The notes beneath the pieces were generated by a model that searched no databases, had not been told where the DNA came from, and worked only from the letters and a program-made list of their open reading frames with translations. Positions 271 to 53,829 of a stretch of 64,000 nucleotides of DNA are shown one piece after another (within the stretch, counting starts at the first letter, position 1; each line of letters starts with the position of its first letter). Where the stretch lies: NCBI GenBank assembly GCA_977020255.1, contig CDROCS010001566.1, positions 62,001-126,000 of the forward strand, given 5' to 3'. The DNA comes from Obrimoposthia wandeli. Taxonomy: Eukaryota. A program made the translations under genes and the position numbers.

Positions 271-352
271 TACATTCATTCTATCATCACTATCATCCTC
301 TCAAAAGTAAGTATTTTTAAAATTTATTTTATATTTAATGAATTTATTTTAT

Positions 353-594
353 ATGACGAAAATTATATTCACGAGAAACGGATCGCAAAAGTGGACCATG
401 AAGGGTCCTGTAGATGATGTGGACGATGTCGACTTGGATGCCCCACCGGTTGAAAAAGGTAAATTTTGTTGTTTTTAAAAAATGTAATTTTAATTTAACA
501 ATGATTAGTGCCACAGCGCCAATTTCTATTGCGCCATGGATGTCAAAAACAAATGATGATGATTGAAAAACGCCAAATGACAAGAAAAGCATAA
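353..594 (+). CDS. Putative small spliced ORF of relic 1 (candidate intron 459-508)
   Basis: ATG at 353, open to GAAAAAG|GTAAAT. A 50-nt AT-rich GT..AG stretch follows and the frame continues to TAA. An alternative acceptor exists at 516. Confidence 0.3.
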
Positions 595-759
595 GGAAAC
601 AAAAGTAGAAGAAGAATGCTAAAGTTTTTAATGTCTTCTGAGCAATCTGCTCTGTCTCCACGTCTTCCTTCTACTTCTTCTTCTTCTGTTTTGTCTCCTT
701 ATTCAACTAATTAAAATAACATTTTTAGGATATTAACGACATAAATGATAATTATCCCG

Positions 760-812
760 ACTGCGACAGCTGCCGGTAACGCAGGGCAGTCTAACTCTTG
801 GAATGGGGTCGT
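760..812 (+). ncRNA. Candidate structured RNA / cis element, copy 1
   Basis: GC-rich 53-mer repeated at 5436-5489 with 5 substitutions and 1 indel, all compatible with one pairing model. Confidence 0.45.
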
Positions 813-1541
813 AAGTCAAATAAATCAAGAGGTTACCCCTTACTTTTTAAACCAGGGACACCTGTTGGGTCCCCTGTAAATTCACTAGACAATTTTATTG
901 TAAACGAAATATACTCGGGTTTTGAAAATATCCTATTTAAAAAATATTTTAATCAACTTAAGAAAGTTAAAAATCAAAATATTGATTTAAGTAAACTAAA
1001 AACAAACGGTAAGCGCGGTAAATGATTTCGACAGAAACTACTTAAGTTGAGAAAATTGCCAGCTGATATAACAAGATTTGCAAATTTAGTAGGATCTTGC
1101 AAACCCATTATTATTAGTCCAGGTCTGAAAATTACAGATCTAGCAAATAAATTATATGAAGTCTTTGGGACTGACCAAATTTATTTTAACCGTAACGGTA
1201 TGCCCTTTGAAAAGGAAGCTGTAATAGGCAATGTTTTACATAATGGGGCTATTATCCATGGATACCCTAAAAGTCGTGGAGGAAGTAACTTATGTACATT
1301 GTACAAGAATTACACTAACGTTAATCATGGAATCGAAAGTGTTAGTGTAATGCTTAAATATTATAAATTTAAAAACGGTTTTATTTGTCCTCAATGTGAT
1401 GTGTTATATTGTATTGATTATCATACATTTTATAATGATCATAAGGATCATCTAACGTATTTCCAGTCGAAAAATTCAGCATATAAACGTAAAGTAATGA
1501 GCGTATCAACAATAATCAACAAAAAAATAGTAAAAAAATAA
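798..1541 (+). pseudogene. Ubiquitin-like domain (ends RGG) + B-box-like zinc finger ORF; ORFs 798-1025 and 1047-1541 are in one frame split by TGA 1023-1025
   Basis: IIISPGLKITDLANKLYEVFGTDQIYFNRNGMPFEKEAVIGNVLHNGAIIHGYPKSRGG aligns to the ubiquitin pattern. ICPQCDVLYCIDYHTFYNDHKDH fits CxxCx4CxxC...HxxH with one C>Y change. Confidence 0.6.
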
Positions 1542-1559
1542 TATTTTATCAAATTCGAA

Positions 1560-4500: not shown

Positions 4501-4915
4501 TAAAGATGTCCTCTTAAAACAAATGATTAAAGATCACATGTTAGATACCAGTTATTACCCACTAACACATGAATTATTTAACTATTCTCATTGAAATGTG
4601 ATTGGAAAGTTTAAGTTGAAACCAAGGGGACAGTGCTTTATGATGAATGGGTATTTCTGAAACCTAAATGCTACTCCTTAAAACGAGTATGAGTGCAAAG
4701 GGTATATCCCTTAAACAAACCGATATCAGCATTAAATCAAGTTTTATATCGAGGATGAAATTATAACTGCCGGTCAGACGCGTAATCATCAATTATTTAC
4801 ATCGTTTAATGATAAAATTGCGTTAAGGTATTGTGACGATAAAAGGGTTTGGATTGAGAAACACAAATCCGTCGCATATGGACACTATAGTCTAAGATAT
4901 GTGTATAAAATCTAG
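1560..4915 (+). pseudogene. POLB: Protein-primed DNA polymerase B (Polinton), many stops and frameshifts
   Basis: Motifs CFKYAVL, VVYAVFES (Exo I), RDHDHITDKYLGAACNKCN, FHNLMGYD, FIDS, DVYLLCDVFEAFR, GIRGG, YGKTVEN, NTDS, KPKCYS and DDKR...AYGH. An acidic N-terminal extension ends at QIGGA. Confidence 0.95.
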
Positions 4916-5146
4916 AGCAACCTCTTGAAAGTATTGATTAATATCCTTTTTCTTATTGTAATAAACAGTCATTGTATATATCTTTTTAAACGTTAGTATG
5001 TATATTTTTATTGATGTTTATTTTTTAATACACTGTATGTATCATAACCATGTCTTGACTTCTTACTAGCTACTCATTTCATTGGATAATTTCAACAAAT
5101 TATCAATATATATATACACCTTTCAATCAATTTCTCATTATTACAA

Positions 5147-5380
5147 ATGACTACTTCAAAAGAGAAATCGCAAGCTTTCCATGATAACCTGAGTCCAACC
5201 TTGATGGCACAGTATTCTGAAACATACTTTCACGTATTTGTTACACCAGAACATTTTGTCAAAAGGATTGAAGAACTTTATATGTATCACCTGCTTAATG
5301 GAGACTTGGAGCCTAAAGTTGCAACAATCATTAAAGTAGAGGAAAGTATGGATTGTGATGATGAATATAATTATGTATAA
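5147..5380 (+). CDS. Hypothetical 77-aa Polinton accessory protein
   Basis: ATG-initiated ORF preceded by ATTGG (5081) and TATATATA (about 5108), like the other Polinton promoters in this window. Confidence 0.5.
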   Translation: MTTSKEKSQAFHDNLSPTLMAQYSETYFHVFVTPEHFVKRIEELYMYHLLNGDLEPKVATIIKVEESMDCDDEYNYV

Positions 5381-5435
5381 ACATAGACATTTTTACTAGA
5401 CTCCTAATATAAACAATAACCTTTGCAAGATTAAA

Positions 5436-5489
5436 ACTGCGATAGCTGCCCGGTTATGCAGGACAGTCTAACTCCTGGAATGGGGTCGT
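5436..5489 (+). ncRNA. Candidate structured RNA / cis element, copy 2
   Basis: Near-identical to 760-812; lies 55 nt after the stop of ORF 5147-5380. Confidence 0.45.
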
Positions 5490-5752
5490 GGTACTAAGTA
5501 AATTAAATAGTTGTACATAAAATCTTGGGACGGTCAATTGTGTTAAATTTCAAAATTTTAATTTAATTGTTAATTTTTAAAATGTATCTACTGTAATAAA
5601 TTTAAAAATCTACGCAAAATGTTATTTACATACAAAATGTCTACGTTAATTTGAATCACTATGCAAAATTTAACTATATACATAATGTGTACGTAAATTT
5701 AACCTACATCATCGTAATTGGAAGCATAAGACCAATCTGTAGAATTGAATAC

Positions 5753-15677: not shown

Positions 15678-16408
15678 CTAGAAAAGGCAGAATATGACCA
15701 AGTAACATTTTCTAACTTTTGATCTTTTATACAAATTATTTAAATAAAAACATCAGAAAAATATGGGATGTAAATAAGCTTTTTATGAAATAAAATATAA
15801 ATGAAATTAATACACCTCATTCAGCGCAAAGTGAAGATACTTCAAGTTTCTATTGATATTTTTTGTATGTAACTAATACTTAGTACTTTTAGTTCTAGTA
15901 AAATTAATTTAAAACAATCTATTATATCAATAAATATCCAACATCATTTGCATATTGCGAATGATTAAAGTACGTGTGCATAAATAATAAATTTGTTTTT
16001 CACTCGTAGCTTGTATATGGAAGATTTCTATAGCATTTGTTTGCAATATTTACAGTGATTAACCATGTTTGATCTGATGGAATTTACAAAGTTGATTATT
16101 ATAAATAAAATAGAAAGTAAAAGTCATATTCAAAATTATGTGCAGCTTTATTGAATGGATATAAACAACCATGACTGACGATGAACTCATATAACTCATT
16201 CTGCACAAAAAACAGCACCCATGAGAAGTGTCAAATTTGGAAATATTAGAAAATTAGTGCTCAGGTGCTGGACAATATAGAAGTGATTAGGATACGGCTG
16301 TTCTTGTACAAAACCTAAGTAGCTCACTTTATGCTGCCCATTAAATACGTATTAAGCCATCTAAAATCACATTTCCTGCATTCATACAAGGATATATTTC
16401 TCACTAAC

Positions 16409-16717
16409 CTTGTCTTCTATCACTTCTGCCCGTTTGGCTTTCATTTTCTTGCGAGGCCCAACACGACCACCGCGCGCCAGCAATGATCGCCACGTTAGCA
16501 AGCACCACTCACACGGCCCAAGCCCTATGATATTGATCAGTAGCACCGCAATAAGCATTGAGCTCAGCACCAACATTGTCACTAACGCCACATGCTCCAG
16601 TCGGTCTAGAATTCCCAAGGTGTTCCACATCGACTTGGATGGCTTCAGTTGCTCGTTCCAGCGAAATGAATCATCCAGGATCCTCTCCTCGTCAGGGTTC
16701 CAGCCAACTCCCATCAA
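16409..16717 (-). CDS. Host gene exon with transmembrane helix and basic stop-transfer region
   Basis: TTGCAG| acceptor and AAG|GTTAGT donor, 309 nt phase 0-0, GC-rich against an AT background. Hydrophobic VALVTMLVLSSMLIAVLLINIIG is followed by RKKMKAKR. Confidence 0.8.
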
Positions 16718-16882
16718 CTGCAAGATACAGAGAATCGAATGGGCAGTTATGCAAAACGTTAATAACATTATGCAACGAACTAAAAACTTTCTTTGTTATT
16801 TTCAAATCGGAAAACTATTTTATGATATTCCTAATAGTTTCAAAGATAATACTAATTAATTTATTTCTAATTAAAATAAGTA

Positions 16883-27840: not shown

Positions 27841-28020
27841 AGTAGGTGGATGTGTCCGGTCTAATCCACAACCTCACTGTCCTTTAAAACCGTGTATGTG
27901 TGTGAAGTGAAATTCCGTGTATGTGTGTAGGAAAAAAATTAAAATAAGCAACGAATAGGAGGGGGTACCACTGTCCTTTAAAACCGTGCATGTGTGTGGA
28001 GTGAAATTTCGTATATATGT
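27841..28020 (+). repeat. Left TIR with tandem duplication of the subterminal module (27875 and 27969)
   Basis: CACTGTCCTTTAAAACCGTG(T/C)ATGTGTGTG occurs twice, 94 bp apart; the inverse is at 42575-42633. Confidence 0.9.
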
Positions 28021-28303
28021 GTCTCCATTCCACTCCCTCTTCACCCACATTTTTAAAAATTTTACTTTGAAATTTACCACGAATCTTGAAAGTGGTTAGA
28101 GAAGACTACGGAAATCCATATTGGACACGGCGGCTTATCGCAGACGAGATTTTAAATAATATATTACTACTATTTTTAAGAAAAATTTTAGATTACTACA
28201 TGTTAAATATTTAGGTCAGATTTATAAGATAAAAATTAGATCACTATATAATTTAGAGGAGTAAAAACAAAATACGAGTCAAAATTATTTTTCAAAACAT
28301 TTA

Positions 28304-28738
28304 TTAAACATAAAACAACATATTGGCTTCACTCAAAGTCCAAAGAGGCTGCATTTTCTCATCATCAGCAAAATATCCATTGAGACGTATTGATATATTC
28401 CATAGTTCTTCATCTAGAATTGGAGCAATCAAATATCCTAGATCATCTTTAAAATCCAGACTGGGATCAGTTTCAAGCTGGAAACAATTTCCTTCATATA
28501 CATAATCAGGAATGTAAAATCCCAAAATATTTTTCAATTGATCAATATCAGATGTTGTTAAAATTTCGATGAAAGATTTATTCTCCACTTTTGATATTTT
28601 CCCAGGATTCATAACTCGTATAATTTGATGCCTCTTTAATATATTACATAGTTTTCCTTTTGAAATTCTTTCTGGATAATAAAAATTTCCTACACATCTC
28701 TTATCCATACTAAAATAAGGAAACTGATTAAAAAACAA
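28304..28738 (-). CDS. Hypothetical 144-aa protein, paralog A (possible OB-fold/SSB-like)
   Basis: Intact ORF (true start may be an internal ATG); its C-terminal half aligns with the neighbouring ORF at 28851-29333. Confidence 0.75.
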   Translation of the reverse strand: MFFNQFPYFSMDKRCVGNFYYPERISKGKLCNILKRHQIIRVMNPGKISKVENKSFIEILTTSDIDQLKNILGFYIPDYVYEGNCFQLETDPSLDFKDDLGYLIAPILDEELWNISIRLNGYFADDEKMQPLWTLSEANMLFYV

Positions 28739-28850
28739 CGTTTATAAAAAAATACATATAAGATACAAATATTTTAAAAATAAAACTGAATATTAAATGA
28801 AAGAAACATAGTAAAACCGATTACAATTTATTATATGCAAAAGAAAAAAG

Positions 28851-29333
28851 TTAAAACATAGAAATATGAGCACGTTCAATTTTCCACATAGGTAACTTTG
28901 TCCCCATTTCATCTGTCTTGTAACCATAAAGTCGAATTGTTACAGTCCAATGCTTCTTTTTCTAAAACGCATCAATATCAACATATCTTCCATAGTCATC
29001 TAGAAATGCTTCATCGGGTCCTCGGATATAAAATTCGTTCTTATTGAAAGTAAAATTTGGAACTGCCTTTTCAACTTTCTGTTTAAGATATTGAAAATCT
29101 GGTTTTTGAATATTTCATAGATAGTAGCTGAACTTTCTTCTTTCAATTGTCACAGGATTTACTAATGCAATCAGTTGAGCCTTCTTCAAGAATCTGACTT
29201 AGTATTTGAAATATTGTTTCACTTCTTCATACATATCCTTATCCGATTCTTCAAACATTTCTAAATCTTCGTCACCGCTTAATATCCGTTGGCTATCGTC
29301 CATCATTGATAATTGTCTTTGATATGAATGCAT
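28851..29333 (-). pseudogene. Hypothetical protein, paralog B of 28304-28738, with stops (missed by the ORF track)
   Basis: Manual translation: ...PDFQYLKQKVEKAVPNFTFNKNEFYIRGPDEAFLDDYGRYVDIDAF*KKKHWTVTIRLYGYKTDEMGTKLPMWKIERAHISMF*. Confidence 0.75.
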
Positions 29334-29394
29334 TTACTGTGATTTTTCCTTCAATGGCGCATTCTTTTATTCTAATTTCTAACAAAGACATGAA

Positions 29395-29555
29395 TCTCAT
29401 TGGTTAATATAACTAAAGCATTGAATTTGATTGGACTAAATCCATATTAAAAATCAAATTTGATTGGAAGAAATATATTATCCAATTATCATAGGTTTGC
29501 AAGATAATTACAAGAAACGTGCAATAAAAAAGCAGGTTCAGACATATATAAAGAA
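29395..29555. promoter_or_regulatory. Divergent promoter with four CCAAT boxes and a TATA box
   Basis: ATTGG at 29399, 29430 and 29463; CCAAT at 29482; TATATAAA at 29545-29552 upstream of ATG 29583. Confidence 0.65.
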
Positions 29556-29582
29556 GATTTTATAGAATACAATTTTAGTCTA

Positions 29583-30079
29583 ATGAAACTCGTAAATATA
29601 AATTATAAAGGTAGAACAGAAGATGATGTTTCGTACTTACCATTCAATGAATGGAAACCGAAACAATATGTGAAAAAGTTTGACAATTTCACAGTTGTTA
29701 TGTTTCCAACAGGTTAGTTTTTTAATTTTCATATTGAATTCTTTTAGGAAATTGTCGTGTTATGGTATGCAAAGTACCTATTATTGGGTTCAATTTACCA
29801 TTTGGAATTCGAATCACTGCAATACAATCAATACATATTTCGGCTAATCTTGGGAAACAGATAAATCTTTTTAAAACTGCAGAGAAAATGAAAAAAGAAT
29901 GTATGTTTGAACCAGAAATTTTTCCTGCTCTCAGTTATTTGAAGTTTAAACCGCTATGTGTAAATATATTTTCCAGTGGTAAAGTTATGATATTTGGATT
30001 GAAAATTTTTGATTATCCAGACATTGTTGATTTGATTTTAGAAAATATATCTTATTACATCTTGTTATCTTTTCTATAA
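29583..30079 (+). CDS. TATA-binding protein-like, 153 aa; join(29583..29712,29748..30079), 35-nt intron
   Basis: The C-terminal repeat FEPEIFPALSYLKFKPLCVNIFSSGKVMIFGLK matches TBP YEPELFPGLIY...LLIFVSGKVVLTGAK. Splicing AG|GTTAGT..TTTTAG|G restores the N-repeat TVVMFPTGNCRV. The spliced ORF has no lesions. Confidence 0.85.
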
Positions 30080-30098
30080 ACAAACAAGTTTAAACTTA

Positions 30099-30380
30099 TT
30101 GTTTCAAATGAATAATACTATAAATAGAGACAATGAAGTGGATAGTCTTGCGAACGAAATATTTTCTGGAAAAATTAAGGGTAAAGACATTTTATCAGAA
30201 TTAAAAAATAATGATATAACAAGAGATAACATTGAAATATTGGTTAGATCACACATTATTCGAGAATTTAGAAATCGTACACAAATAAATAAAATTATAG
30301 CCAAATATTCATTAATTAATTTTTGTATTTCATCTACAATAGCTCTAACATTGTACATTTCAATAAGGAAACTTCTATGA
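30099..30380 (+). CDS. Hypothetical 93-aa protein with a C-terminal hydrophobic segment (ATG probably 30108)
   Basis: Intact ORF between the TBP-like gene and the ATPase; YSLINFCISSTIALTLYISI is hydrophobic. Confidence 0.6.
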   Translation: MFQMNNTINRDNEVDSLANEIFSGKIKGKDILSELKNNDITRDNIEILVRSHIIREFRNRTQINKIIAKYSLINFCISSTIALTLYISIRKLL

Positions 30381-30417
30381 TAATATAAACAATATTTAAA
30401 ATGAAAGAGTATATGCA

Positions 30418-31067
30418 ATGGAGTTAAATATTAATGCTGTATTTCAAATAGTTGGTCTCAGTGGAAGTGGAAAGACACATTTCGTATGTAAATTGTTGCA
30501 AAATGAATCTCTTTTCAAATCTAGTTTCAAAAATAAATTTATTGGCATCATGGTGGAGGAGGGGAAAGTGGATTAACCAAAACAGAAGTTTGCAAGTTGA
30601 AGGGAATACAATTTATTGAAGGATTTGATGCAAATTGGTGTGAAAGATTGAAAAAAGAAGATGTAATAATAATTGATGATTTGTATGAGGAGGCTAACAA
30701 GGAATCGGACTTTAAAAATTTATTTACAAAGATTGCAAGACATCGTGAAGTAACAGTTATATTTATCACTCAAAATCTTTTTCATCAAGGAAGTCACCAT
30801 AGAACTAGAAATCTTAATGTACATTACTTAGTTTTATTTTAAAATCCTAGAGATCAAACAGTTGTTGATTTCGTGGCCAGACAGACGTTTCCTCAAAATA
30901 AGAACTTTCTAGTTGATTCATTCCACGATGCTGCTAAAAAAGCATATGGGTATATATTTATTGACTTTACACAAGCTTGCCCAGATGATTTACGTGTTTT
31001 AACCGACATATTTAGTTCTAAGGGATTAACTGTTTATAAACAAATAGAGAACAATCATAAAAGATAA
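30418..31067 (+). pseudogene. ATP: A32-like FtsK/HerA genome packaging ATPase (frameshift near 30540, TAA at 30840)
   Basis: Walker A GLSGSGKT, Walker B VIIIDD, ITQNLF, VLF*NPRD and YGYIFIDF. Confidence 0.95.
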
Positions 31068-31244
31068 ATTTACAATACCTTTTAAGAAGTTGAAAGTAAA
31101 GCGTAAAGCAAAGCCTAAAAAATCAAAAAAAGAATCATTAAGAAAAAAGAAGTGAAAAAATTAATCAAATCTGTAGTTAGAAATAAAAAAAAACTTAAAT
31201 GGCTTCAAATATAAACAATATTCAAATTGAACCTTTTTATTAAA

Positions 31245-31500
31245 ATGAAGAAAATACAAAAAAGCATACCCTATTTTAAAGCTTTAGTCAAAGCCTCTTC
31301 TCATAAGAGAATTATTATTCTTAAAGCATTTTCATCTTTTGTTGTAGATGATTTATTGGAAGTTTTGTATAATATTGTTTTGGATCGAGTAAAAGTTGGA
31401 AATCGGAAAAATATATTAAAGAAATATAGAAAAACTCTTCTAGATATTGCTAGATACGTTCATAAACAATTATTTCTAAAATCAGCTAAAGATATGGGTG
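31245..31500 (+). pseudogene. Basic Polinton core-like protein, C-terminus apparently lost
   Basis: KALVKASSHKRIIILK....VDDLLEVLYNIV....LKKYRKTL fits a recurrent Polinton ORF pattern; a Lys-rich remnant lies upstream at about 31070-31215. Confidence 0.55.
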
Positions 31501-31551
31501 CTAACCCTTCTTTACCTAAATTTAAATTTTCTTTCTATTCAAATTGTTGTA

Positions 31552-32575
31552 ATGTAGAAGATATGGTTCAATCCAAAAGATCCAATTGGCTACACGGGAG
31601 TTTCAAAATTAGCAAAAGAACAAAACAAAATTACAAGAAAACGCAGAAATGGCTGAGTGGTCAGTTAGCCTTCAGTCTGAACAAGCCGATGAAAAGAAGG
31701 TTTCCAACTAGAGCTTACAAAACCAACGGTCCTAATAATTTATGGCAAATGGATTTGATGGAGATGATCCCATATTCTTCCATTAATAAGGGATATCGAT
31801 ATATTTTAACATGTATTGATGTATTTAGCAGGTTTGCTCGTGTATTTCCAGTCAAAGCAAAGTCTTCAATAGCTATGCTTGAAGCCATTAAAGAAATATT
31901 AAAAGAGGACATTCCACAAAATGTACAAACTGATTTAGGAAAATAATTTTATAATTAGCAAGTTCAATCATTATTTAAGCAAAATAATATAAATCACTAC
32001 TCTGTGTTTTCACAGTACAAAGCAGCAGTAGTAGAAAGATTTAATCGTACTTTAAGAGATCGAATAAAAAAGTATTTCACGAAAGAAGGAAATAAAAAAT
32101 GGATCCAAGTTTTACCTAAAATAATACATGCATATAATCCCTCTGAACACATAGGTCTCAAGAGAATGAGACCTGTTGATGTTACTAATAAAAACTCTAT
32201 GGATATTTGGATGGACAAGAATAAAAAAGAAAATACTAAAAAACCTAAATATAAGAAAAACGAATATGTTCGAATTTCGAAAATTAGCTCTACTCCATTT
32301 ATTAAAAACTTTGATCAGAATTGGAGCGATGAAATATTTTATATAAGTAAAATTGATCAAAAGAGTAATCCAATAATGTATACTATTGAAGATGCTGACA
32401 ATAATATCTTTCACGGTAAATTTTACGAGAACTACAAGTAATATCTAATAAACCTAGCGTTTTCCGTATTCAAAAAATATTAAAATCTAAGGGTGCCAGT
32501 AAACATAAACAATACTTTGTTAAATGGCATGGTTATTCAGACCCAACTTAGATATCAGCATCTAAAATAATATGA
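31552..32575 (+). pseudogene. INT: Retroviral-type DDE integrase with C-terminal chromodomain (about 6 lesions)
   Basis: WFNPKDPIGYTG, WQMDL, IDVFSR, QTDLGK*F, VVERFNRTL, NWSDEIF and chromodomain YFVKWHGY. Confidence 0.95.
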
Positions 32576-33614
32576 AGTCTATGTATATGGTGTTACCTAG
32601 TAACGGATGCCTGAAGACTCAACCAGATAATGACGCTAGTAACTTTATTATCGATTGGGAAAATCCTATAAATCTCCAAGGATTCGGGAAGCGGCTTTAA
32701 CATATTTTTTTTATTATTCTCCAATTACTATTAGAAAAAACTCACATATTTCGTTTACAAAAGTAAATCAACTGAAGTTGTGATTGGTTTTGATAGTAAA
32801 GGACAATTCTATTACAATTGTATAGATAAAGAAGTGAAAGTAATACTAGAAAATAACAAAGTCAGATGTAAAAATCGATTAAAATATCTTCAAGTTATTA
32901 AAATTAACTTTGAATCTAAAAAAGAAGCTCTTCAATTCAGTTTTGATAGTGAATAAACAGTAGCTCGTAATAAACGGGATATAGTCTCATATAAATCGGT
33001 TAGAAATGTTCCTGGTAAAGTAGCAAAAGTGATGTTACTTGAAACGAGACCAAAGACTGTAGTGGAACTGAAAAAGTTTTCAAAAGATTATAAAATAGAT
33101 AGTGAAGTAGGATTTATGTAAATTAATACAGAACGAATGTAGTGAATATTTCGATAAATGTGAAACATTAAATGGTAAATTAATGTTTACAGTAAAGAGC
33201 AATATAAAACGAGTTTCATTTGATGATAAACTTGCTAAAAACCTTGGTTTAAACAGAAATACCTTTGAAACCCATACAATAAAAACCATAAAAGCTAAAA
33301 ATAAGGCAAAACTTTTAAATGCTGTTAATAATTTATATATTTATACTAATTTAATAGAACCAACGCTTGTAGGAGGACAGCGAGTTCCACTTTTGAGAAC
33401 AATATGGATATCTAAAAATGAAACTAGATATGGGGACGCTGTCGGTATGTGTATAGATCAACCAATGTATCTTCCAGTTTCTCTCTTTTCTTTAAACAAT
33501 ATTGAAGTAAATATTAGAGATGATTCCGGACAACTAATAGATTTCACGTACGGGGCCAACACAAGTTTAACAATACATTTAAGAAAACAAAATGACGAAT
33601 CTAGCATTAATTGA
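32572..33614 (+). pseudogene. PX: Minor capsid protein (penton, single jelly roll), frameshifted
   Basis: N-terminus YMVLPSN...PDNDASNF; C-terminus LYIYTNLIEPTLVGGQRVPLLR...PMYLPV...IEVNIRDDSGQLIDF...TIHLRK. Confidence 0.9.
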
Positions 33615-33960
33615 GGCTTATAGTCAAAGCCAACAAGGTGGAGAATTACCATATTTTGTTGGTAAACAATATGGATCTGGCTGGCTTAGAACATTAGTTA
33701 GATTTGCCTTTCCTCCTTTAAAGAGACTCGGGCGAATTATATCAAAATTAGGAAAGTATTACCTTTCATCCAAGGACAATAAACTAATACCAACTTTTAA
33801 GAAGCATACACTTGATAATGTTTTACCTGAAGTTGCTAATTTGATTAGAAAACATAAATCAAATAAAAGCCAAGAAAGTAGTGGATTTAAACGTAAAAAG
33901 AAGCAAAAAATCAATATAAACAAACATAAGAAAGTTCAAGGAACAATATTTGCAAAATGA
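33592..33960 (+). CDS. Conserved Polinton virion core-type protein (QxGG / GxG motifs, amphipathic helix, basic tail)
   Basis: YSQSQQGGELPYFVGKQYGSGWLRTLVRFAFPPLKRLG; sits directly before MCP with an ATGA overlap. Confidence 0.8.
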   Translation: MTNLALIEAYSQSQQGGELPYFVGKQYGSGWLRTLVRFAFPPLKRLGRIISKLGKYYLSSKDNKLIPTFKKHTLDNVLPEVANLIRKHKSNKSQESSGFKRKKKQKININKHKKVQGTIFAK

Positions 33961-35186
33961 GTTGCGCCAAAACCGAATTGTGTATTTTTGATAAACCACT
34001 TCCACAAGTAGTTGTAGATAATGCTTCCTTTGAAGAAATATTTCTAGTTAACTCAGTTTCAGGAACCACTTTAACCGATTTAGAATTTAATATTAATGGT
34101 TCCAATAGGGAATATTTAGATTTGAATGATACTTTGCTTTATGTTCAAATAAAAGTATTAAATCGGGATGGTACTAATTTAGAGGAAAATTCCGATGTAA
34201 CACCTGTAAATTATCTCTTTAATTCTTTATTTAGTGTTGCCATTGTTACTCTAAATAATGTCAAAATTGAAGGTGGAAATTATTCCTATGCTCATAAAGC
34301 TTTGATTGAACGTCTTTTGAATTATAGTACTGATACTCAAAATACTAATTTGGCAACCATTGGTTATGATAAAACAGTTGCAACTCGCAAAGAATGGATT
34401 GCGGGTTCTAAAGCTTACGAAATGTGTGGGTCTTTGAGATTAAATTTCTTTGAACAACCGAAATATTTAATTCCCGGTGTTAATGTACATCTTCGTTTGA
34501 AACGTAATAAATGGAATTTTTCTTTGATAAGCACAGACGTTCTAAAACCTAGACTTGATATTTTGGATGCAAAATTGTATATCCGAAGAGTTAAAACGGA
34601 GCAATCAGTTTTAATGGCATCTAATATAGGAATGGAAAAAAACAATGCTTGTTATCCTATTAGAGAAACTAAACTTATATCCTATTCTTTAGGTACGGGT
34701 ACACAAGCTTTTCATAAGAATCAAATATTTGGTGATGTAAGAATACCGAAATTCATTTTAATTTCTTTTCAAATAACTGCAAAATTTCTAGGAAATTATA
34801 CGACAGATGCAACTCAATTTGACAATCTTAATGTAGGTTCAGTGACACTTTCAAGAAATACTGATTATCGCGAAACATATAAAACAGATTTCGAAGGTAA
34901 CGCTTATGCTTTGGCTTATACGCAATCTTTTATTCGGAATTTGGGTCAACTAGATAAAAATATAAACAATGGTATTTCTTTCACTGACTTTAAAACTGGC
35001 TGCCCGTTCTTCACATTTGTTTTGGCACCAGACTTTGATATAAACCAATGCCAACTACCAAAGGATGGAAATTTACGACTAGAAATTAAGTTCAATGCAG
35101 CTTTAACACATCCTACTACGGTTCTTATTTACGGAGTGTTTGATTCGGAAATACAAATCAATAAAAACAGAACTGTCATATTATAG
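33957..35186 (+). CDS. PY: Major capsid protein (double jelly roll), 409 aa, open ORF
   Basis: CAKTELCIF..P.PQ, LEFNING...YLDLNDTLLYVQIK, ERLLNYS, QPKYLIPGV and LRLEIKF..AL......IY. Confidence 0.95.
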   Translation: MSCAKTELCIFDKPLPQVVVDNASFEEIFLVNSVSGTTLTDLEFNINGSNREYLDLNDTLLYVQIKVLNRDGTNLEENSDVTPVNYLFNSLFSVAIVTLNNVKIEGGNYSYAHKALIERLLNYSTDTQNTNLATIGYDKTVATRKEWIAGSKAYEMCGSLRLNFFEQPKYLIPGVNVHLRLKRNKWNFSLISTDVLKPRLDILDAKLYIRRVKTEQSVLMASNIGMEKNNACYPIRETKLISYSLGTGTQAFHKNQIFGDVRIPKFILISFQITAKFLGNYTTDATQFDNLNVGSVTLSRNTDYRETYKTDFEGNAYALAYTQSFIRNLGQLDKNINNGISFTDFKTGCPFFTFVLAPDFDINQCQLPKDGNLRLEIKFNAALTHPTTVLIYGVFDSEIQINKNRTVIL

Positions 35187-35187
35187 A

Positions 35188-35552
35188 ATGAAGTAAGACA
35201 TTTTTAAAATTTATATTTATTATTTTTTATTTAGTTCAGTACAAGTACAAGAATCAGCATAAAGGTCCTGGGTGATAAATTCAATGGAGTTTATCCAATT
35301 GATATGATCCCATTTTTTCAATCTGGAGGTTACATTATCAATACTCATACTTCGAATTTACCGGGAGAACATTGGATAGCTATTTATGTTAGAGAGTGGA
35401 CAATACATGTATTTGATCCACTTACAATGTATTATCCACATAAAATTGTTTCAACTATTCAAAAAGGATGAAGAAGAGTATTTTACAACAAGATACAATA
35501 TCAGGATCCTGCAACGAGAAACTGTGGAAATTTATGTATTTTATGGTTATCG
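35188..35552 (+). pseudogene. PRO: Adenain-like cysteine protease with a 42-nt intron (35193-35234), a 1-nt deletion and one TGA
   Basis: FNGVYPID, IINTHTSNLPGEHWIAI, VFDP and QYQDPATRNCG (His/Asp/Gln/Cys). ATGAA|GTAAGA..TTTAG|T gives MNSVQVQESA. Confidence 0.9.
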
Positions 35553-35829
35553 TTGCAAAACGATTAGTGTGTTATAAAAATAAATATTTTAAATGTTTTA
35601 TTTTGAATTATTTTTTTTAAATCCCTAAAAAATATAAGGTAAAATAATAAAAGACATAAGACGAATTTTTTTTAATACATTTATTAAACACAACATCACA
35701 ATGAGATCTGTCAGCAAAGATAAGGCCCAACCTAAAAATGTATTGAAATAACAAAAAGTTAGAGTCAATGTGCCATAGGGATCTAAAATTTTAAAAATTA
35801 AACTAAAAAAATCAAAAAATGAAAACCGT

Positions 35830-38800
35830 TTAAATTCGGAAGTGTCCATAAGCCAGGCTAGCGTTCTTTTCTACTTAAAAGCGCTTGTCGTCATTACTAC
35901 TCAAAGCGATTTTGGTTGATTTATGGGAATACAGTTGATGGGCTCTTGAAATAAATCTAGTTTGCTCAACGCTTTCAATACACCCAGTATCATAAACATT
36001 CCGGTAGGCCCCATGTGTAAGATTGTTTCTTCCCACACCCTTTGCTCTCATTGAACATGTATTATTAGATGCATGTAAACTGTAGCATTTAGGGCGTAGG
36101 AAAATACAATCCTCATACGAAACCTGTCCCTCGCTTTCATCTTTAAATTTCCCGATAATATATTTTAAACCCATAGAGTGTAGAGGATGGTTAGCGGGGT
36201 ATTTATGGGTATCTAGTAAGTTGTCCCTAAACATTGTTGGTAATAATTGATTATTTAAACTAACATTCCTACATTCTAAAAAGAAAGAGTCAGTGTCCCC
36301 AGCTGTGAATTTGATCTCACAATTGAATTCTTGTCGATATTTCTCTAATTCTATGTATTGAAGCTCGTACATTCTGAGTTTAGAAATGCCTAAAACCGTT
36401 TGACCTATATAACTCGGTCGATCGAGACAAATACTCTGTTTTCCTAATAACACTGCTACCAAGTCATTTGCAATTGTAAAACTACGATTGAAGTTGTACT
36501 TGCTAGTATATGTTATTAGTTTACGCTCATCATTGCAAAACCGTAGACAAATACGTTTCCGCAAGTCCTCTACTGTTTTTCCAAAGAGACTATTACTTTT
36601 TAATTTATAAATATCCCGATCGAATTTGCTAGTGGCCAAATTACGTTTTCTAGAATTCTTCTCAATATAGTCTTTAAACACAAAGTGTTGACTGAAGCTT
36701 ATAGCACGATGAATTCAAGTGACTTTCGCTTCCAACTTAAAGTAGAATTGAAGAAGCCGCCAATGCACTACATAATTCAGCTTATCTTCATGTGTTAACA
36801 ATAATTTCTTAACCTTTGAATTAGGTGGACATTGATGAACAGGCGCTACTGGAAGATCATTTAATTTATCATGCACATTGGGAGGGATTTTTAAGTCAAC
36901 CTCAACCAAATAGCCGACGTCAGCTGAAACTGTATCAACAGTAGCCAAATCTGTCATCAACTTATTCAACTCTTCCTCATCATAAACCCACTTAAAGTTG
37001 GCATGAGGTAGAGGTTGAGTAAGCGCCCACCCATACAAATTATTGATGTCGATGTACAGAATCTCCGTGGATTGATTTTTGACAACATGATGTTTGTTGA
37101 CAAAAGTCATTCCACCGCGTATACCATAATCATACATTTGATACATCGCGGGATCTTGCAGTAACTCGATATTAATTTCAAGAGTTTTATTGCCGTTGCC
37201 CATGAAAGACCAGGTAAACTAAAGATATGCATGGGATCTAGCCCATCTTCTGCTAAAGATTTTACACGAAAGGACTCAAAAACATCAGCTAAAAGATAAA
37301 TGTCTAACTTCATATAATAAAGCATATATTCTAAAAAATTTCGACAATTATTCGCCCAAAATGTACGGGCCTCATTATAGTCTTGAAGACTTACATCCTC
37401 AAATTCAGTTATGGATGAGATTTCAGTAGTATTTTCAAAATCTGCAAAGGTTTTCGCAAATTTATACGGAAAAATCCCCTTATCATTAACCGAAGCTGAG
37501 AACACTGACTGTGTGATTGACCATGCATTTAAAGATGCCGTTAAATTTTTTAAAGACCCACTCAAAACCTGCAGAGAATCTATGAATCTTAAACTGCAGA
37601 ATTCAGTATATGCAGTTACAGATAAATATTTCTCTGAAGTTTGAGGTATACATGAAATTTCCCAAGAGCTTAATGTACCAAACGCATATTTAAGTATATG
37701 ATGCAAATCATATCCTTTGAGGTTATGAAACACGATGGGAATGCGTGGTTTTTTAGGGAGACGACAGCCAAGGTCACAGAGGTTGCACGCCGCTCCCAAG
37801 TATCGCCCCGTAACATGATCGTAATCTCTGACTAACTTAGACTGGGTTCCACACAAATAACATAATCTACAAGAATTAAAATTAACCCAGTCTATGCCTG
37901 TCATGATCATTGCTTGATGAGCATTAAGATCATACCACTGTTTGACAATTGTTGTTCCTAATTCTTCTAATTTCAACATAAAATCTAAAATACAATTTTG
38001 ACCGGAAAATTTATGATACTGTATAATATTGGGGCCTAAGAATAGTAGTCCTGCCGAAGCCGGTAGGTGAATACTCTCATACTGGTCGTGCAATGCTAAA
38101 ATTGACTCAAAATCTGCATACACCCTGAATTCCACGGGTATGCATTTTGCCCAATCCCTGAATTTTAAATCCTTATCCTTAGGCATGCTGTATAGCGTAT
38201 TGTCATCAGGATTCAGTGAACATAATGTCAGATATTTGCTGTAAGAGAGCTCGGATCGGAATCCATGTAAACATCTATGACACCACTAACACTTTATCCT
38301 AACCGGTAAGGCTCCATTATATAAATTTAGAAGACGATCTAAATTGGGAATTGTAGCATAATGGAATTTTTTATTATGTTCGAGCAAAATTAAGTTGACC
38401 TGAGTCCCCTCATCTTTGCTCCTATAAATTACATCTACAAAAGGATTTTGAAAAATTTCTTCATCTGTTACATTAACTGGGATATCAGTATTATATTTAA
38501 ATACATTAATACTCAATTTATTAAGGTGTTCAATTCTTGATATCGCAGTTAATTTAACAGGAAAATCTATTCCAAGATACTGCAATTCATTTAAAAAAGG
38601 GGTATATTTACTGACACGCTCTCTATGCTCAGTAATTACATCCCTTTTGAGGATGGCCAACACGCTATACATAAAGCAAAGGTTATCACTGTTTTGTACG
38701 TTAACAATGGAACGTGAAAGTTGAAGAGATCTAGGCGAAGGAATGTATGAACTCCCCGAAAGATATATCATGTCAGTGAACTTTGTTAGAACAAAGGTAA

Positions 38801-39203
38801 CATCGTGAATTCTAACTAGAGTCCATCCACTATTTAAACCGCTATAATTAGCAATTTTTTCATCTAGGTTTCTTCCAATTTCAGTTACAAAATTATCATA
38901 GAAAACAGTTGCTTTATGTAAAATTACCCAAGTTTTAGTCTCCTCATTGACATTTTTAAACTGCACTGTTGCGCAAATTTGAACCTTAGCCTGTTCTAAT
39001 TTAGTCACTTCTGATTTTAAAAGATTTTCAATATTTGAATCTACACCTACGTTTAATAAACTTTTATTTCCTAATGGCACCTTAACTATAACATATTTAT
39101 TATTTAGGTGATACTCTATAGTAGCACCGTTTTCTCTACGTTTTTTTGGTGGAACTTTATTAAGAAATTGGCCTCGCCTCTTTTTACCTACATTCACTGA
39201 CAA
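35830..39203 (-). pseudogene. POLB: Protein-primed DNA polymerase B (TAG 38286, frameshift near 37190, TGA 36715, TAA 35875)
   Basis: VYADFES, RDYDHVTG, FHNLKGYD, FIDS, GIRGG, YIDINNLYG, KLKSNSLFGK, GDTDSFF, RPKCY and DDKR..AYGH; the four ORF-track pieces join through three in-frame stops and one frameshift. Confidence 0.97.
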
Positions 39204-39700
39204 ACCTCCCCCTAATTGAACGGGAAGACAACTAGTTATATTAATAGCAGCTGAGGTGGAAGGTGCTGCTAATGGTGATGCTGCTGATGTTGAGGCAATC
39301 GCAGCTGTAGTAGTATATGATGCTGTAGTAGATGCTACCGCAGATGATGAGACAGTAGATGCTGCATTTGAAGTAGGAGTAGCTGAGGTAGGAGTTGACC
39401 TTACCGATGAAGAAGCGGCTGTTGCAGAAATTGAGGCTGCTGAAATAAATATATTAAAAAATAAATATAATTTTAAAAATTATTACCTCCAGGCGTGCTA
39501 ACATCGATGTAGGCACTCGCGATGGTGGAGGCATAGCTGTCGTAGCAGATGACGGCTGTATCAAGGTACTTCCTGAAGAAAAAAAAATATAGATATAATA
39601 AAAAATAAAATATATATAATTACAATTTTAAAAAAATAAATAAAAAAAACCTAATGAAGGCAATCTAACTGTAGCTGGTTGGAAGTCCCAAAGAAAGTGT
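39204..39700 (-). other. Putative spliced Ser/Thr/Ala-rich N-terminal extension of pPolB (candidate introns 39440-39486 and 39573-39650)
   Basis: The frame is open upstream of 39203 (AASISATAASSS...QLGGGLS). Two AT-rich GT..AG blocks separate GC-richer segments. Frame continuity across exons is ambiguous. Confidence 0.5.
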
Positions 39701-40907
39701 TTGCTTATATACTAAAATTTATGCACACATGCTCTTTTCTTATTGGATGAAAAATTGATTTTATTCCTCCACTGAGAAGGATTGTTTATCTGTTATTGGT
39801 TGATAATATTATTTTTAATATTTTTTATTCCTCCAATTAAAAGGCTTATTTGTAATTGGATGAAAAATTTATTTTAAAAATAATGAATTTCTCCAATTAG
39901 AAGAATTGTTTATCTACATGTCAAATAATAATAAGATAGACTTAAACATTTTTTATATGCGCAATGGTCACCATGACTACGACATGGACAGCAAATATTT
40001 CGTGGAATTTCAAGGTACTTCTTGAAGAAAAAAAAATATAGATATAATAAAAAATAAAATATATATAATTACAATTTTAAAAAAATAAATAAAAAAAACC
40101 TAATGAAGGCAATCTAACTGTAGCTGGTTGGAAGTCCCAAAGAAAGTGTTTGCTTATATACTAAAATTTATGCACACATGCTCTTTTCTTATTGGATGAA
40201 AAATTGATTTTATTCCTCCACTGAGAAGGATTGTTTATCTGTTATTGGTTGATAATATTATTTTTAATATTTTTTATTCCTCCAATTAAAAGGCTTATTT
40301 GTAATTGGATGAAAAATTTATTTTAAAAATAATGAATTTCTCCAATTAGAAGAATTGTTTATCTACATGTCAAATAATAATAAGATAGACTTAAACATTT
40401 TTTATATGCGCAATGGTCACCATGACTACGACATGGACAGCAAATATTTCGTGGAATTTCAAGGTACTTCTTGAAGAAAAAAAAATATAGATATAATAAA
40501 AAATAAAATATATATAATTACAATTTTAAAAAAATAAATAAAAAAAACCTAATGAAGGCAATCTAACTGTAGCTGGTTGGAAGTCCCAAAGAAAGTGTTT
40601 GCTTATATACTAAAATTTATGCACACATGCTCTTTTCTTATTGGATGAAAAATTGATTTTATTCCTCCACTGAGAAGGATTGTTTATCTGTTATTGGTTG
40701 ATAATATTATTTTTAATATTTTTTATTCCTCCAATTAAAAGGCTTATTTGTAATTGGATGAAAAATTTATTTTAAAAATAATGAATTTCTCCAATTAGAA
40801 GAATTGTTTATCTACATGTCAAATAATAATAAGATAGACTTAAACATTTTTTATATGCGCAATGGTCACCATGACTACGATATGGACAGCAAATATTTCG
40901 TGGAATT
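39561..40907. repeat. Near-perfect tandem triplication of a 449-bp unit containing the pPolB promoter
   Basis: Units start at 39561, 40010 and 40459; I saw only two single-base differences. Confidence 0.95.
39700..39900. promoter_or_regulatory. CCAAT-rich divergent promoter (first of three copies)
   Basis: ATTGG at 39742, 39795 and 39855; CCAAT at 39833 and 39893; minus-strand TATATAA at about 39705-39711. Confidence 0.6.
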
Positions 40908-41640
40908 TTTAATAGATGATCACGAGAAATATTTAAAGTATTCAACCTCAATTTGGGAAAATATATTTTTAAAGTCTTATACTTTTTGCCATCCATTTCA
41001 TCTAAAACATAAAAAATTCCATTTTCAATATCAAAATTAGATTTTATTATATCGAAAATACATATTTCAAAAAAAGCCTTATGACCTTCTTTCCATTTTA
41101 ATAAATGGAAATAATTAGTTAGATATAAATTAGTAAATTTTTATTTATAATCTAAACTTCTAAATGGGATATTTATATTTATATGAAATGCAAAGGATGA
41201 AAAACGTCGCATACATCCATAATACATAATTCTTTTATAATATGATCACCATTTTTGTTAACGAAAGCCTCAAAATCTATGATGTATTCCTGCATAATTA
41301 CCCAAATTTGTATCCAATCCCTTTGTTTATAACGAATAAAAAAATCATTAATCAAAAATTTATTAAAATAACAAATCAGGATTCAGTCTTTCATGTTAAG
41401 ATTGGTATATATTGTCAATTATCCTATGAATATAAAATAAATTATATTAAACATACCTAAATATTTCGAAATTAAATTACATATTTTATCTTCAATGATT
41501 TCCGGACTATTATTTTCTGAAAAGTAATTTTTTTTATAATCTTCCTTTAAATCTGGAGATAATTTTATGTATAATTTATTCCAATTTTTATTATCCATTT
41601 TACAAAAAACATTATATAAATTTATTTATATTTAGACAAT
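40817..41640 (+). pseudogene. Degraded hypothetical Polinton accessory gene
   Basis: ATG TCA AAT start, open for about 75 codons, then stop-interrupted pieces including ORF 41242-41460; its 5' end is duplicated in the 449-bp repeats. Confidence 0.45.
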
Positions 41641-41713
41641 TATGTAACATAATAAATAAAGACAAAATAATATTCAAAAAATTAATTTTTTTGTGGAAGG
41701 ACCCTCTACCTGT

Positions 41714-41998
41714 TTAATCTGGAGGATTCTCTTTCTTGCTACTCGCCGAACATCCTCCACCTCTTCTTTTTTCATCCACCTTCCTTTTTTCCAATTCGAT
41801 CTTCTTGTTCCACTCCACGCACCGACGTCGTTCTGCTAGCCGCCTATCTTGTATCTCCACCCGGCGATTCCACTCGGTCGCGACAGCAGCATACAAATTT
41901 TGATTGAGGACCCTCTTTCTTAAGTCTCCTTTCTTCTCATTTATTCTGATGTTTGCTTCCATCTTCGTTACCAAACCTTGCAATTTAATGAATTCCAT
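41714..41998 (-). CDS. Hypothetical 94-aa charged, coiled-coil-like protein
   Basis: Intact ATG ORF, R/K/E-rich; TATA-like tract at about 42030 and CCAAT at 42168 upstream. Confidence 0.65.
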   Translation of the reverse strand: MEFIKLQGLVTKMEANIRINEKKGDLRKRVLNQNLYAAVATEWNRRVEIQDRRLAERRRCVEWNKKIELEKRKVDEKRRGGGCSASSKKENPPD

Positions 41999-42454
41999 TT
42001 TTAATTATGAAGAGGTTAATAAATTTGAACCTATATATATAAATTTAAGATATTTTTAATTCAATCACAGGCAATTAAACGATATATTTTTATTTATCAA
42101 ATTAGAGTTTAATAAATCATTGCATTTATATTTAATCCTAAAATAATTTAAATGATTCCTTATTAATCCAATCACAGTCGAATAAATTTACTATTTTTTT
42201 CTTCTTAATATTTTAATGTTAAATAAATATTAAGAAGAAAACACATGAAATTAATTTTTATAAATTATATTCTTAAAAATCTTTACAAAGTAAAAAAAAA
42301 ACTAGCCTTTTGAATGTATCTGGATATAAATTTCTCGCGTACAATTATTCACGCCCGCAGGTATTGTCATATACAATTTTTCGCGACCCTGTATATATAT
42401 GTATTGCTCGTCAAACCACCGCGGGCCCGGAGGGCACGCGTTGGCCCCTTAGAC

Positions 42455-42633
42455 GGCCTCTCAGGACCTTCTTCACGTTTTTGGGAGCACTATGAGATTT
42501 TCAATTTTAAAGGGTATTATATGGGGTTAATTAGTTTTTTTTGAGTGTTGGGGGGGGGGAAGGGGTAGAAAATTTATCTTTACACACATGCACGAAATTA
42601 AACTCCACACACGCACGGTTTAAAAGGACAGTG
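42455..42633 (-). repeat. Right TIR/subterminal region, terminal ~34 bp missing
   Basis: Reverse complement matches 27875-27930 and 50-215. Confidence 0.9.
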
Positions 42634-43449
42634 GGGGAGATGGCTTTGTTTTAATTGTTTAATAATTTAAGAGTACATAATTTGTCTTTGTGTGTAAGAA
42701 AGTAATGAAACCAGAACTTATTTGTCATTCAATCATTTTTAATTTAAAAATACAATAAGCTAATTGATGTGATTATATTGTTTAAATTTAAAAATTAAAC
42801 AAACAAATTAAACGCTAAAAACGCTACTTAAGTTGACTCTCATAATCTTGAACAATTTAACGAATAAGAAATAACTTTTAGAAAAAGAATATTTACAACC
42901 TGAAGTAGAAATTTATAATTAAATTTTAAAATTTAAGAAAATAATAGGCTTGTTTAATGTTTAGATAGAAACATTGTATTGCTGATAGACAGATTAAATA
43001 AAGCACATTTCTGTATTAAATATATGTTTAATGAAAGGTATATAAAATTTTAATATTTTTTCATACATTAAGATTTTTGTTGTTGAATTAAGTGTATTTT
43101 AAAGTAATTTAAATCCATCTTGTTTTTAATTTTAAAAATCATTTTTTCAATTAAACACAAAATGTAGTTTACACATTATTTTTATTGGAAAATTTAAGAA
43201 AACGATTTTGTGAAAGAAAATAGAAAATTAAAACTCAAACAGAATTAAATAGAAAACTGTCTGTTTATTTGGTATAAGTCATTAAGTCATTAAATATCAA
43301 ACCAATGTGCCGAATCTGTAATCAACTACAGTTTTCAAGTACAACTTTACAAGACATCACATGGTAAAACATCAAACTTTTGTAAATACCTACCCATTAT
43401 TGTCAGAGGCCAGGCAAATAAAGCTGAAGTAGGTGATGTTTTCGAATTT

Positions 43450-51930: not shown

Positions 51931-52553
51931 CTGTAAACGGTTCATTTTTGATTAAATGAATGTTGTTACTTCAGCTTTTTGTTTATATTATGTGAAAATA
52001 TGTCATATGGATATATTTGGGACAATTTAATTTTAGAAATTTATTATTTCGTTTTATTAATATAGCTAAGCAGAACTTAAGAAAATATGTCTTTCAATGA
52101 AAATAAACATTAATGTTATCTCGAACATATTTAAATTTCTAGTTAGTACAGTATAAATTTGTAAGAGTCCATACAGAAATCCTGATATGGTAGACATAGC
52201 ATACATACAGGTTTTGCCAGAATCTGCAATTTGTTTTGTTAGGTTATTTATTTTATTTAAAAAATATTTACCTGTACTCTAATTATTTATTTTAATTGTT
52301 TGGTTAGAAATGTCTAAATTTTACAAACCCTGTAACTTTCTATTTTATGAATATTCCTCAAATATTGTTTTTACATTTTATGGTATACTTGCTGAAATAG
52401 TTTCATAAAAGAGATAGCCACATGTTTATTTGAAATATTTAAAACTACAAATCGAAATACCCAAGAGACAAAACAATTTTAACGGGTACTCCTTAATTTC
52501 GATTAATCTTCTTTGAGAGCTTGGTATCAGAACACACACAGAGACGCACCGAC

Positions 52554-52830
52554 CTTGAGTCGCTGCTCGTCGTTCAGATTGACTCCAGTTCCGGCAGAAC
52601 CCGGCTCGGAGGTGAGTTCGTCGCACGAGACAGCAAGCAGCACGCAGGCGGCCGTGTGTCTCGCGATTCCGGAGCATCGACCAGACACAGTGCAGACCCT
52701 TGTGCGCACCATCTGACCACCGAGACCACAGCTGCGACTGCATACCGTCCAGGGCGACCAGGATGACCACTCCGGTCGACGAGGTGGCACCTCACAGTCG
52801 CGGCCGGAGAAACCCGCAATACAGGTGCAG
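52554..52830 (-). CDS. Host gene exon: end of an EGF domain + thrombospondin type 1 repeat
   Basis: GTCAG|C TGC ACC TGT acceptor; CTCIAGFSGRDCE and WSSWSPWTVCSRSCGLGGQMVRTRVC; donor AAG|GTCGGT; GC-rich island. Confidence 0.9.
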
Positions 52831-53829
52831 CTGACACAGACCGGGAGAACTGACTTATTTGGGAGCACAAATACGAGACGTTCAACGAATTGTAGTACTA
52901 CAGATTAAGCTAGAATTATATTTACTCTTTGTTGTTTAGTTTTCTAAAATTTAAAAAGAATTTTATTATGATAAAGCATTATATTTTAATTTCTTAAAAT
53001 AATTTTAATGGTATAGCCCGGGATAAACTGAAAGATTCGGCTTTTATTTTTGTACCAATATGAATTTAAAAATTGTTTCGTTTATTTTTTATGTTATAAA
53101 TACTATTTTCATACTCTGTTGTATTATTTTTATCAAATTTAGTTCATACAACTTGTATTTGAACTGGCTTGTATTTAAAGAAAAAAATCTTTAATTCGAT
53201 ATCAAAGCAATAAATCTGATAATTTTCCCAATGGAAAAACCCAACTGGGCCCCAGCATGAACATATTTTCAATTTTCAGGACACTGGGGAATAGCTGGAC
53301 ATTATTACTTCGGCACTACAAAAATATGCAGGAACAAATCCATTAATATATCCATTGCTCAATATTTGCCCAGAATTATCCAGCTCGTATTTTCAATTTG
53401 TCCAGTTAAATACGTTCTAAACTTGAGGCACATGTGAGCCTCAGTTAAACACCAGAAAGAAAAAAAATCTGCATTTAATGAACATTAAGCCGTGTCGAAT
53501 TAATCAACAAATGATTGATCGTCAGCCATAAAGCCAATGAGCTTTCTGTTGGGCATTTGTTAGAATATAGTTTTCTTGATATCCTGTTAAATTATAATTA
53601 TCTTCTTGCAGGCATAGCATACTTATTGCTATAAGGTGTGAGATTTGATACTGTTAGTTCAATTCAAATGGTATATGAACAATCTATCTTTTGTTATGTA
53701 CCTAAGTAAAACCATTAAAATTACGGTGTTTCTCGGCATGTGTTAAGACACCTGAAAACTAAATTTTGATTTTATACAGAGACTTTATATAAAACACAAT
53801 ATGTTATACATAGCTTTTATTCAACAATA

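Follow-up and report, generated by a model that had tools for sequence, protein, structure and literature searches.

Whether Polintons, whose core genes are described as uninterrupted, can carry introns for the host spliceosome to remove is the question raised by a decayed element in the stretch of 64,000 nucleotides of DNA analysed here (the window). As far as the accessible text of the respective reports goes, intact vertebrate Mavericks have no introns (PMC8097293), nematode Mavericks combine intronless core genes with intron-bearing cargo (bioRxiv 10.1101/2022.07.12.499685), and gene calling of endogenous viruses assumes that introns are absent (PMC10120064, PMC9356565). In the window, the ATG of a protease gene at 35188 lies one base past the capsid stop codon (35184-35186) and is parted from the body of the gene by a short GT-AG block, and a preliminary description of this DNA had proposed spliceosomal mini-introns here, in a TBP-like gene, in the pPolB 5' region and in an ORF of a relic element. 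The reading reached here, predicted from the DNA and given a probability of roughly 0.9, is that the AT-rich GT-AG blocks of the protease, TBP-like and polymerase genes are U2 spliceosomal introns that the host would splice. The blocks are very likely introns because they occupy the same site and phase in diverged lineages, have free interiors, are missing from intronless relatives, and fit the short class of host introns.

The window lies in a 1.35-Gb, AT-rich animal assembly. Between 27841 and about 42636 it holds pPolB, integrase, ATPase, TBP-like and capsid-position genes together with terminal inverted repeats (TIRs), a Polinton of what is called here family A (Table 1). The polymerase matches PF03175 (best E 4e-12, Pfam), the integrase matches PF00665 (E 2e-7, one bit below the cut-off, on a broken piece), and the packaging ATPase matches PF04665 (E 0.006 on a fragment, weak alone, with a P-loop piece upstream and a frame that is whole in relatives). 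The putative double jelly-roll major capsid protein gave no Pfam hit; in Atlas it scored 0.97 against clusters in which 15-22% of members carry PF21738, a recognition below the mark of that tool. Both ends, starting with AG, and a 6-bp target-site duplication occur together in a single one of ten fetched sister copies, the 14.4-kb L065+L066, and the window itself shows the repeats. By exact flank patterns, the family A protease region exists in at least 3,082 genomic copies, an unusually large expansion for a Polinton. Family B, to which the window's relic-1 (303-5500) belongs, and family C, identified via its TBP-like gene, are also multi-copy, and most Polinton copies in the genome are decayed. 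One family-B copy nonetheless keeps a pPolB open frame of 1,551 codons; the terminal repeats of this family were found, its outer ends lying beyond the reach of the comparison.

Table 1. Features of the window and their predicted exon-intron structure
Feature	Positions	Strand	Remarks
Relic-1 predicted 5'-UTR intron, family B	307..352	+	just before pPolB start; acceptor decayed; 39-51 nt in sisters
Relic-1 predicted coding intron, pPolB leader, family B	459..498	+	donor intact, acceptor decayed; 40-45 nt in sisters
Family A Polinton copy, decayed	27841..42636	.	left TIR from 27841; right TIR truncated, 42570-42636
TBP-like exon 1	29583..29712	+	130 nt, phase 1
TBP-like predicted intron, 35-nt GT-AG	29713..29747	+	phase 1 in Gly of first F-x-S/T-G motif
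TBP-like exon 2	29748..30079	+	PF00352 E 8e-11
ATPase, integrase and minor-capsid-position genes	30400..33614	+	decayed; no conserved intron-like block on coding strand
Putative major capsid protein	33957..35186	+	one open frame, no intron
Protease exon 1	35188..35192	+	start codon plus two bases
Protease predicted intron, 42-nt GT-AG	35193..35234	+	phase 2 of codon 2; site common to seven lineages
Protease exon 2, adenain-like cysteine protease	35235..35567	+	broken in window copy: stop and frame break near 35260, further stop near 35470
Main pPolB exon	35875..39439	-	PF03175; with stops and frame breaks
pPolB leader predicted intron, 47 nt	39440..39486	-	34-47 nt in sister copies
Small pPolB leader exon	39487..39572	-	phase 1-1; out of frame in window copy
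pPolB leader predicted intron, 78 nt	39573..39650	-	69-97 nt in sisters; upstream exon deleted in window copy

Further features of the window and of the assembly call for a few remarks of their own. Positions 1-270 are the right end of another family-A element, abutting the family-B relic directly, and two minus-strand segments (52527-52904 and 16382-16795) are probable host exons, the first resembling EGF and thrombospondin by eye. A small accessory gene on the minus strand contains a 33-nt GT-AG block (41424-41456) that measures 40 nt in all five sister copies covering it. A 45-nt intron candidate at 28711-28755 (minus) was not supported, since the frame before it ends in a stop and the one after it has a Met of its own. 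The assembly is mixed: given a second animal's cox1 (L221, G000:C5352) and many bacterial oxidase genes, it contains other organisms' DNA, and bacterial contigs are present too. A multi-copy cox1 insert encodes lysine at three sites that are asparagine in the cox1 of another animal in the assembly, and the cox1 copy on contig C289, which also carries family-A elements, has asparagine at two of those sites under table 9, the mitochondrial code used by flatworms and echinoderms. On this basis the host is likely a rhabditophoran flatworm.

The protease intron is the best documented of the set. In the window the 42-nt block has an AT content of 90%, compared with 68% for the coding DNA on either side, and in a DNA search its length and both its GT and AG recurred in 20/20 loci, with exon 2 open in 14 of these. 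At DNA level the block first described from a single copy is confirmed. A larger sample of 80 family-A loci, 77 of them mappable (a few are duplicates, and 60 came from protein searches that favor intact frames), gave lengths of 42 nt in 72 loci, 41 nt in four and 39 nt in one, with GT at the donor in 75 and AG at the acceptor in all 77; without splicing, the protease reading halts at codon 3 in 76 of the 77. Genome-wide, exact flank patterns were separated by 30-60 nt at 3,016 places and by 23-29 nt at another 66, and among these 3,082 matched copies there was neither a precisely intronless protease nor a gap shorter than 23 nt. The protein itself is recognizable, the family profile matching adenovirus protease 1avp (E 2.8e-6) with the His, Asp, Gln and Cys columns kept. 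As a separate observation, 14 of the 66 short matches share variant bases around an intron of ~28 nt (e.g., C863:13755-13807 and C1219:11198-11250), which indicates that a sub-lineage with this intron has spread; an intron of ~28 nt may approach the minimum that the host can splice, or its carriers may have been copied in trans.

The comparison across lineages carries the greater weight. The family B protease (55-57% identity) has, in 9/9 copies, a 42-43-nt GT-AG block of different sequence with codon and phase unchanged, and the family C protease (55-58% identity) has a 39-40-nt block at the same site in all four gene-bearing copies among six fetched, its donor being of the weaker GTAAT type and lost in one of the four. 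A metagenome scan yielded 30 loci, of which three lay too close to a contig end and 27 were readable; seven of these, representing four lineages at 45-53% protease identity (L145/L155, L147, L149/L150 and L151/L152), carry a 39-43-nt block at the same site. Two of them, L149 (4372-6446) and L150, also have two tandem minor-capsid-like genes. Donors are GTRAG in six lineages and of the GTAAT type in the seventh. Across all seven, intron lengths of 39-43 nt cover all three frames modulo 3, and interiors are no more alike than shuffles: of the 36 pairs that nine element introns form, two reach p<=0.05. Position is conserved among homologous Polintons down to codon and phase, as the preliminary description had suggested should be checked, and both length and interior are free. 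The remaining 20 of the 27 metagenomic loci, including the close relatives L143 and L144, have no block and start in frame at this point; that intronless relatives read straight through supports the interpretation of the blocks as spliceosomal introns.

A skeptical account would hold that the block is an AT-rich spacer, that protease translation starts from a Met within the body of the gene or from a codon other than AUG, and that nothing is spliced. Blocks of the GTRAG type are indeed cheap: one was seen per element against 1.3 expected in 100 shuffles (about 4e-5 per position), and given that one per element is expected by chance, the weight of the evidence lies in the fixed position in seven lineages and not in the block. 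Family A moreover offers an internal Met, the first in exon 2, at residue 24. That Met sits behind the part aligning with the adenovirus protease, however, so that a start there would forfeit adenain-like sequence, and in family B exon 2 contains no Met in 9/9 copies, from which it follows that splicing is needed for its protease. Intronless homologs mostly start two or three residues before exon 2, a stretch equal to the contribution of exon 1, and their ATG sits exactly where exon 1 would provide it. The splice ends, finally, are kept over seven lineages and the middle is not. An unspliced spacer is consequently judged very improbable.

Interpretation as introns also has consequences for databases. 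Four database proteins (P0002, P0004, P0005 and P0013) have F/Y/L/I-rich leaders ahead of the exon 2 point and four more (P0001, P0003, P0006 and P0015) have late starts; as compared at protein level, such odd leaders and late starts would fit ORF-only calling across an intron of this kind. The earlier warning that annotation restricted to open reading frames fails on these genes was well founded, for ORF-only callers mis-call these proteases. A scan of IMG/VR gave 20 pattern matches, none confirmed; a word-indexed homolog search returned one protein only, and a genome search with P0002 recovered mainly family A.

Whether introns this small are ordinary for the host was approached through its myosin genes, from which 38 introns were inferred by homology in 11 stretches (seven of the 38 are from a GC-richer contig, possibly of another organism). 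Eleven of the 38 measure 36-51 nt and the remainder 78-3,123 nt, the long ones being less certain. The element introns match the short class. The idea of a host with very short introns thus holds in part: a short class exists, but given the many long introns the genome as a whole does not deserve that description. Nor can the protease intron be an adaptation to this host alone, as had been supposed, since it is shared with elements of unrelated metagenomes.

The distribution of the protease intron points to its history. All 11 intron-bearing rows of a 30-row capsid tree, which is midpoint-rooted, carries long-branch warnings and leaves out family C and short loci, fall inside one 13-row clade with support of 100/100; the other two members are the intronless L144 and an element whose protease lay outside the fetched stretch, and none of the 17 rows outside the clade has the intron. 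The simplest reading, and a likely one, is that the protease intron was gained once near the base of this clade and lost in one branch. Real introns might instead have been gained several times in parallel at a favorable site after the start codon. The unrelated interiors would suit such a history, as would the nesting of the intronless lineage of L143 and L144 within the clade, weakly supported at 82/85, and the tree as labelled needs three changes, one of them owing to the row for which no protease sequence was fetched. Unrelated interiors are nevertheless expected after one old gain, because short AT-rich introns lose similarity fast, and the intron occurs in 7/8 lineages inside the clade against 0/18 readable loci outside it, a contrast that renders repeated gain unlikely. 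The intronless relatives have blocks of their own elsewhere: a 43-nt GT-AG block closes the protease gene of L144 (L144:1838-1880), in a lineage without the codon-2 intron, and further 43-nt blocks lie in accessory regions of L143 and L144.

A third possibility is that the blocks are mobile inserts of the introner type that landed in integrated copies after insertion. A precedent exists in dinoflagellate viral elements, of which 25% are described, in the accessible text, as having introners, mostly gained after integration (PMC12166617). Here, by contrast, all 3,082 matched copies have the intron, the same site is used in unrelated samples, and the introns of the element are unlike each other, so that an introner origin is judged very improbable. 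Single, ancient gain of the protease intron remains the preferred reading.

The TBP-like gene, a class of gene named on MELD viruses in a figure legend of one report (PMC8502044), presents a similar picture on a narrower scale. The 35-nt intron proposed for it is present in 7/8 covering family-A copies and extends to diverged families, with 35-47 nt in 10/10 family-B copies (GT in nine); another diverged element, located next to L093/L094, has one of 46 nt. All TBP-like introns found interrupt the Gly codon of the first F-x-S/T-G motif in phase 1. In family C (7/15 loci), L149 and L153 the intron is absent and the motif is read straight through. It might be imagined that the intron arrived with a captured host TBP gene, given that the gene is TBP-like and that host-derived cargo with introns is known from nematode Mavericks. 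In the host TBP genes examined (L236 and L237, as well as L239 and L240) no intron interrupts the motif, however, nor does one in the intronless element genes just named, and capture together with the intron is accordingly regarded as quite implausible. Two host TBP genes stand head to head, ~1.2 kb apart (G000:C238:871798-874002), and two more diverged, one-exon TBP-like genes lie at C60:132396-132908 and C1092:86720-87232. The family-B intron (L101-L110) contains a 4-base microsatellite whose length differs among copies. Among the joints listed, none of 15 (2,158 more exist) matches the TBP-like intron; the read contigs concerned, on 28250-35100, come from one sample and four runs of unspecified kind and are no evidence either way.

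In the polymerase gene, the introns precede the main exon. The 47- and 78-nt blocks of the window prove to flank a pPolB exon that is kept in frame, measuring 87 nt in 6/7 informative sister copies (eight examined) between two phase-1 introns. In family B the leader coding exon is 106-124 nt long and of length 3n+1 in 7/7 matched copies (ten examined). In both families the leader introns vary in length while the leader exons keep the frame, an argument from frame logic in low-complexity sequence that has no alignable intronless homolog. The 50-nt intron originally drawn in relic-1 has to be redrawn: the donor at 459 stands, whereas the acceptor at 508 lies 10 nt past the site matching the sister copies and in the wrong frame. 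Separately, positions 39550-40900 of the window consist of three tandem copies of ~449 bp, each with the 78-nt intron. L149, which has the protease intron, has a one-frame TBP-like gene and a pPolB frame of 1,304 codons. The TBP-like and pPolB introns are narrower in distribution and are likely later gains than the protease intron. In a survey of families A and B, the coding strands of the ATPase, integrase and capsid genes contained no conserved intron-like block, a survey that is not exhaustive since its filter missed the family B protease intron.

The elements described here can be set beside known systems. With vertebrate and nematode Mavericks, as described in the accessible text on these, they share pPolB, integrase, ATPase, an adenain-like protease, putative capsid genes, TIRs and a 6-bp target-site duplication; they differ in that the core genes of the former are intronless whereas core genes here carry short introns fixed by lineage. 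Where PMC8097293 describes intronless core genes, the protease and pPolB are split here, and the capsid, integrase and ATPase genes are not. An intronless core is a described trait of Polintons and not a defining gene, and its breach marks a variant. Dinoflagellate Polinton-like elements likewise have introns of spliceosomal type, but according to the accessible text these are young mobile inserts (PMC12166617), whereas here one site is fixed across copies and lineages without shared sequence. Protist PLVs also have introns in Polinton-like genomes, one class adjoining the capsid gene, although these are described in the text at hand as self-splicing group I introns of 309-376 nt (PMC12220804), in contrast to the 35-97-nt GT-AG introns predicted here. 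At title and abstract level, no report of fixed spliceosomal introns in Polinton core genes was found; an earlier note may exist, with Repbase and supplements beyond the scope of the search.

How such introns would operate can be outlined. The element genes would be transcribed in the nucleus by host RNA polymerase II, their introns would be removed by the host U2 spliceosome, and the element would be copied from DNA to DNA, a mode of copying by which introns would pass to every new copy. Given that the unspliced protease frame ends after two codons, splicing is likely required for the protease to be made. Whether or not a lineage carries the intron, the stop of its capsid gene abuts or overlaps the start of its protease gene, and this contact suggests, speculatively, a transcript shared by capsid and protease. 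Translation of the protease from such a transcript would proceed by stop-restart, and the intron, 1-7 bases behind the capsid stop, would act as a splice switch that turns a two-codon stub into a maturation protease and sets the timing or amount of the enzyme. This is a tentative proposal, and on balance a doubtful one. Adenoviruses have a related protease and pPolB, are transcribed in the nucleus and use host splicing; theirs is a long-range alternative splicing of large units, whereas the introns here, predicted from DNA, are single, small and host-like. If the switch were true, it would foreshadow, on a small scale, the control of late genes in adenoviruses, and retention of the intron across the clade would mean that the elements still depend on particle maturation.

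Callers that are ORF-only or prokaryotic, as used in surveys of Polintons and related viruses (PMC10120064, PMC9356565), truncate or mis-start three genes in this clade, those for the protease, the TBP-like protein and the polymerase, as several database proteins appear to show. Splice junctions would serve as copy-independent markers that separate real expression from read-through of thousands of dead copies. The clade also supplies intron gains that are dated and one loss. Most broadly, the maintenance of an intron in the protease that matures the capsid is an indirect sign of nuclear transcription of the morphogenesis genes and of continued selection on them, and it bears on the question of whether animal Polintons form particles.
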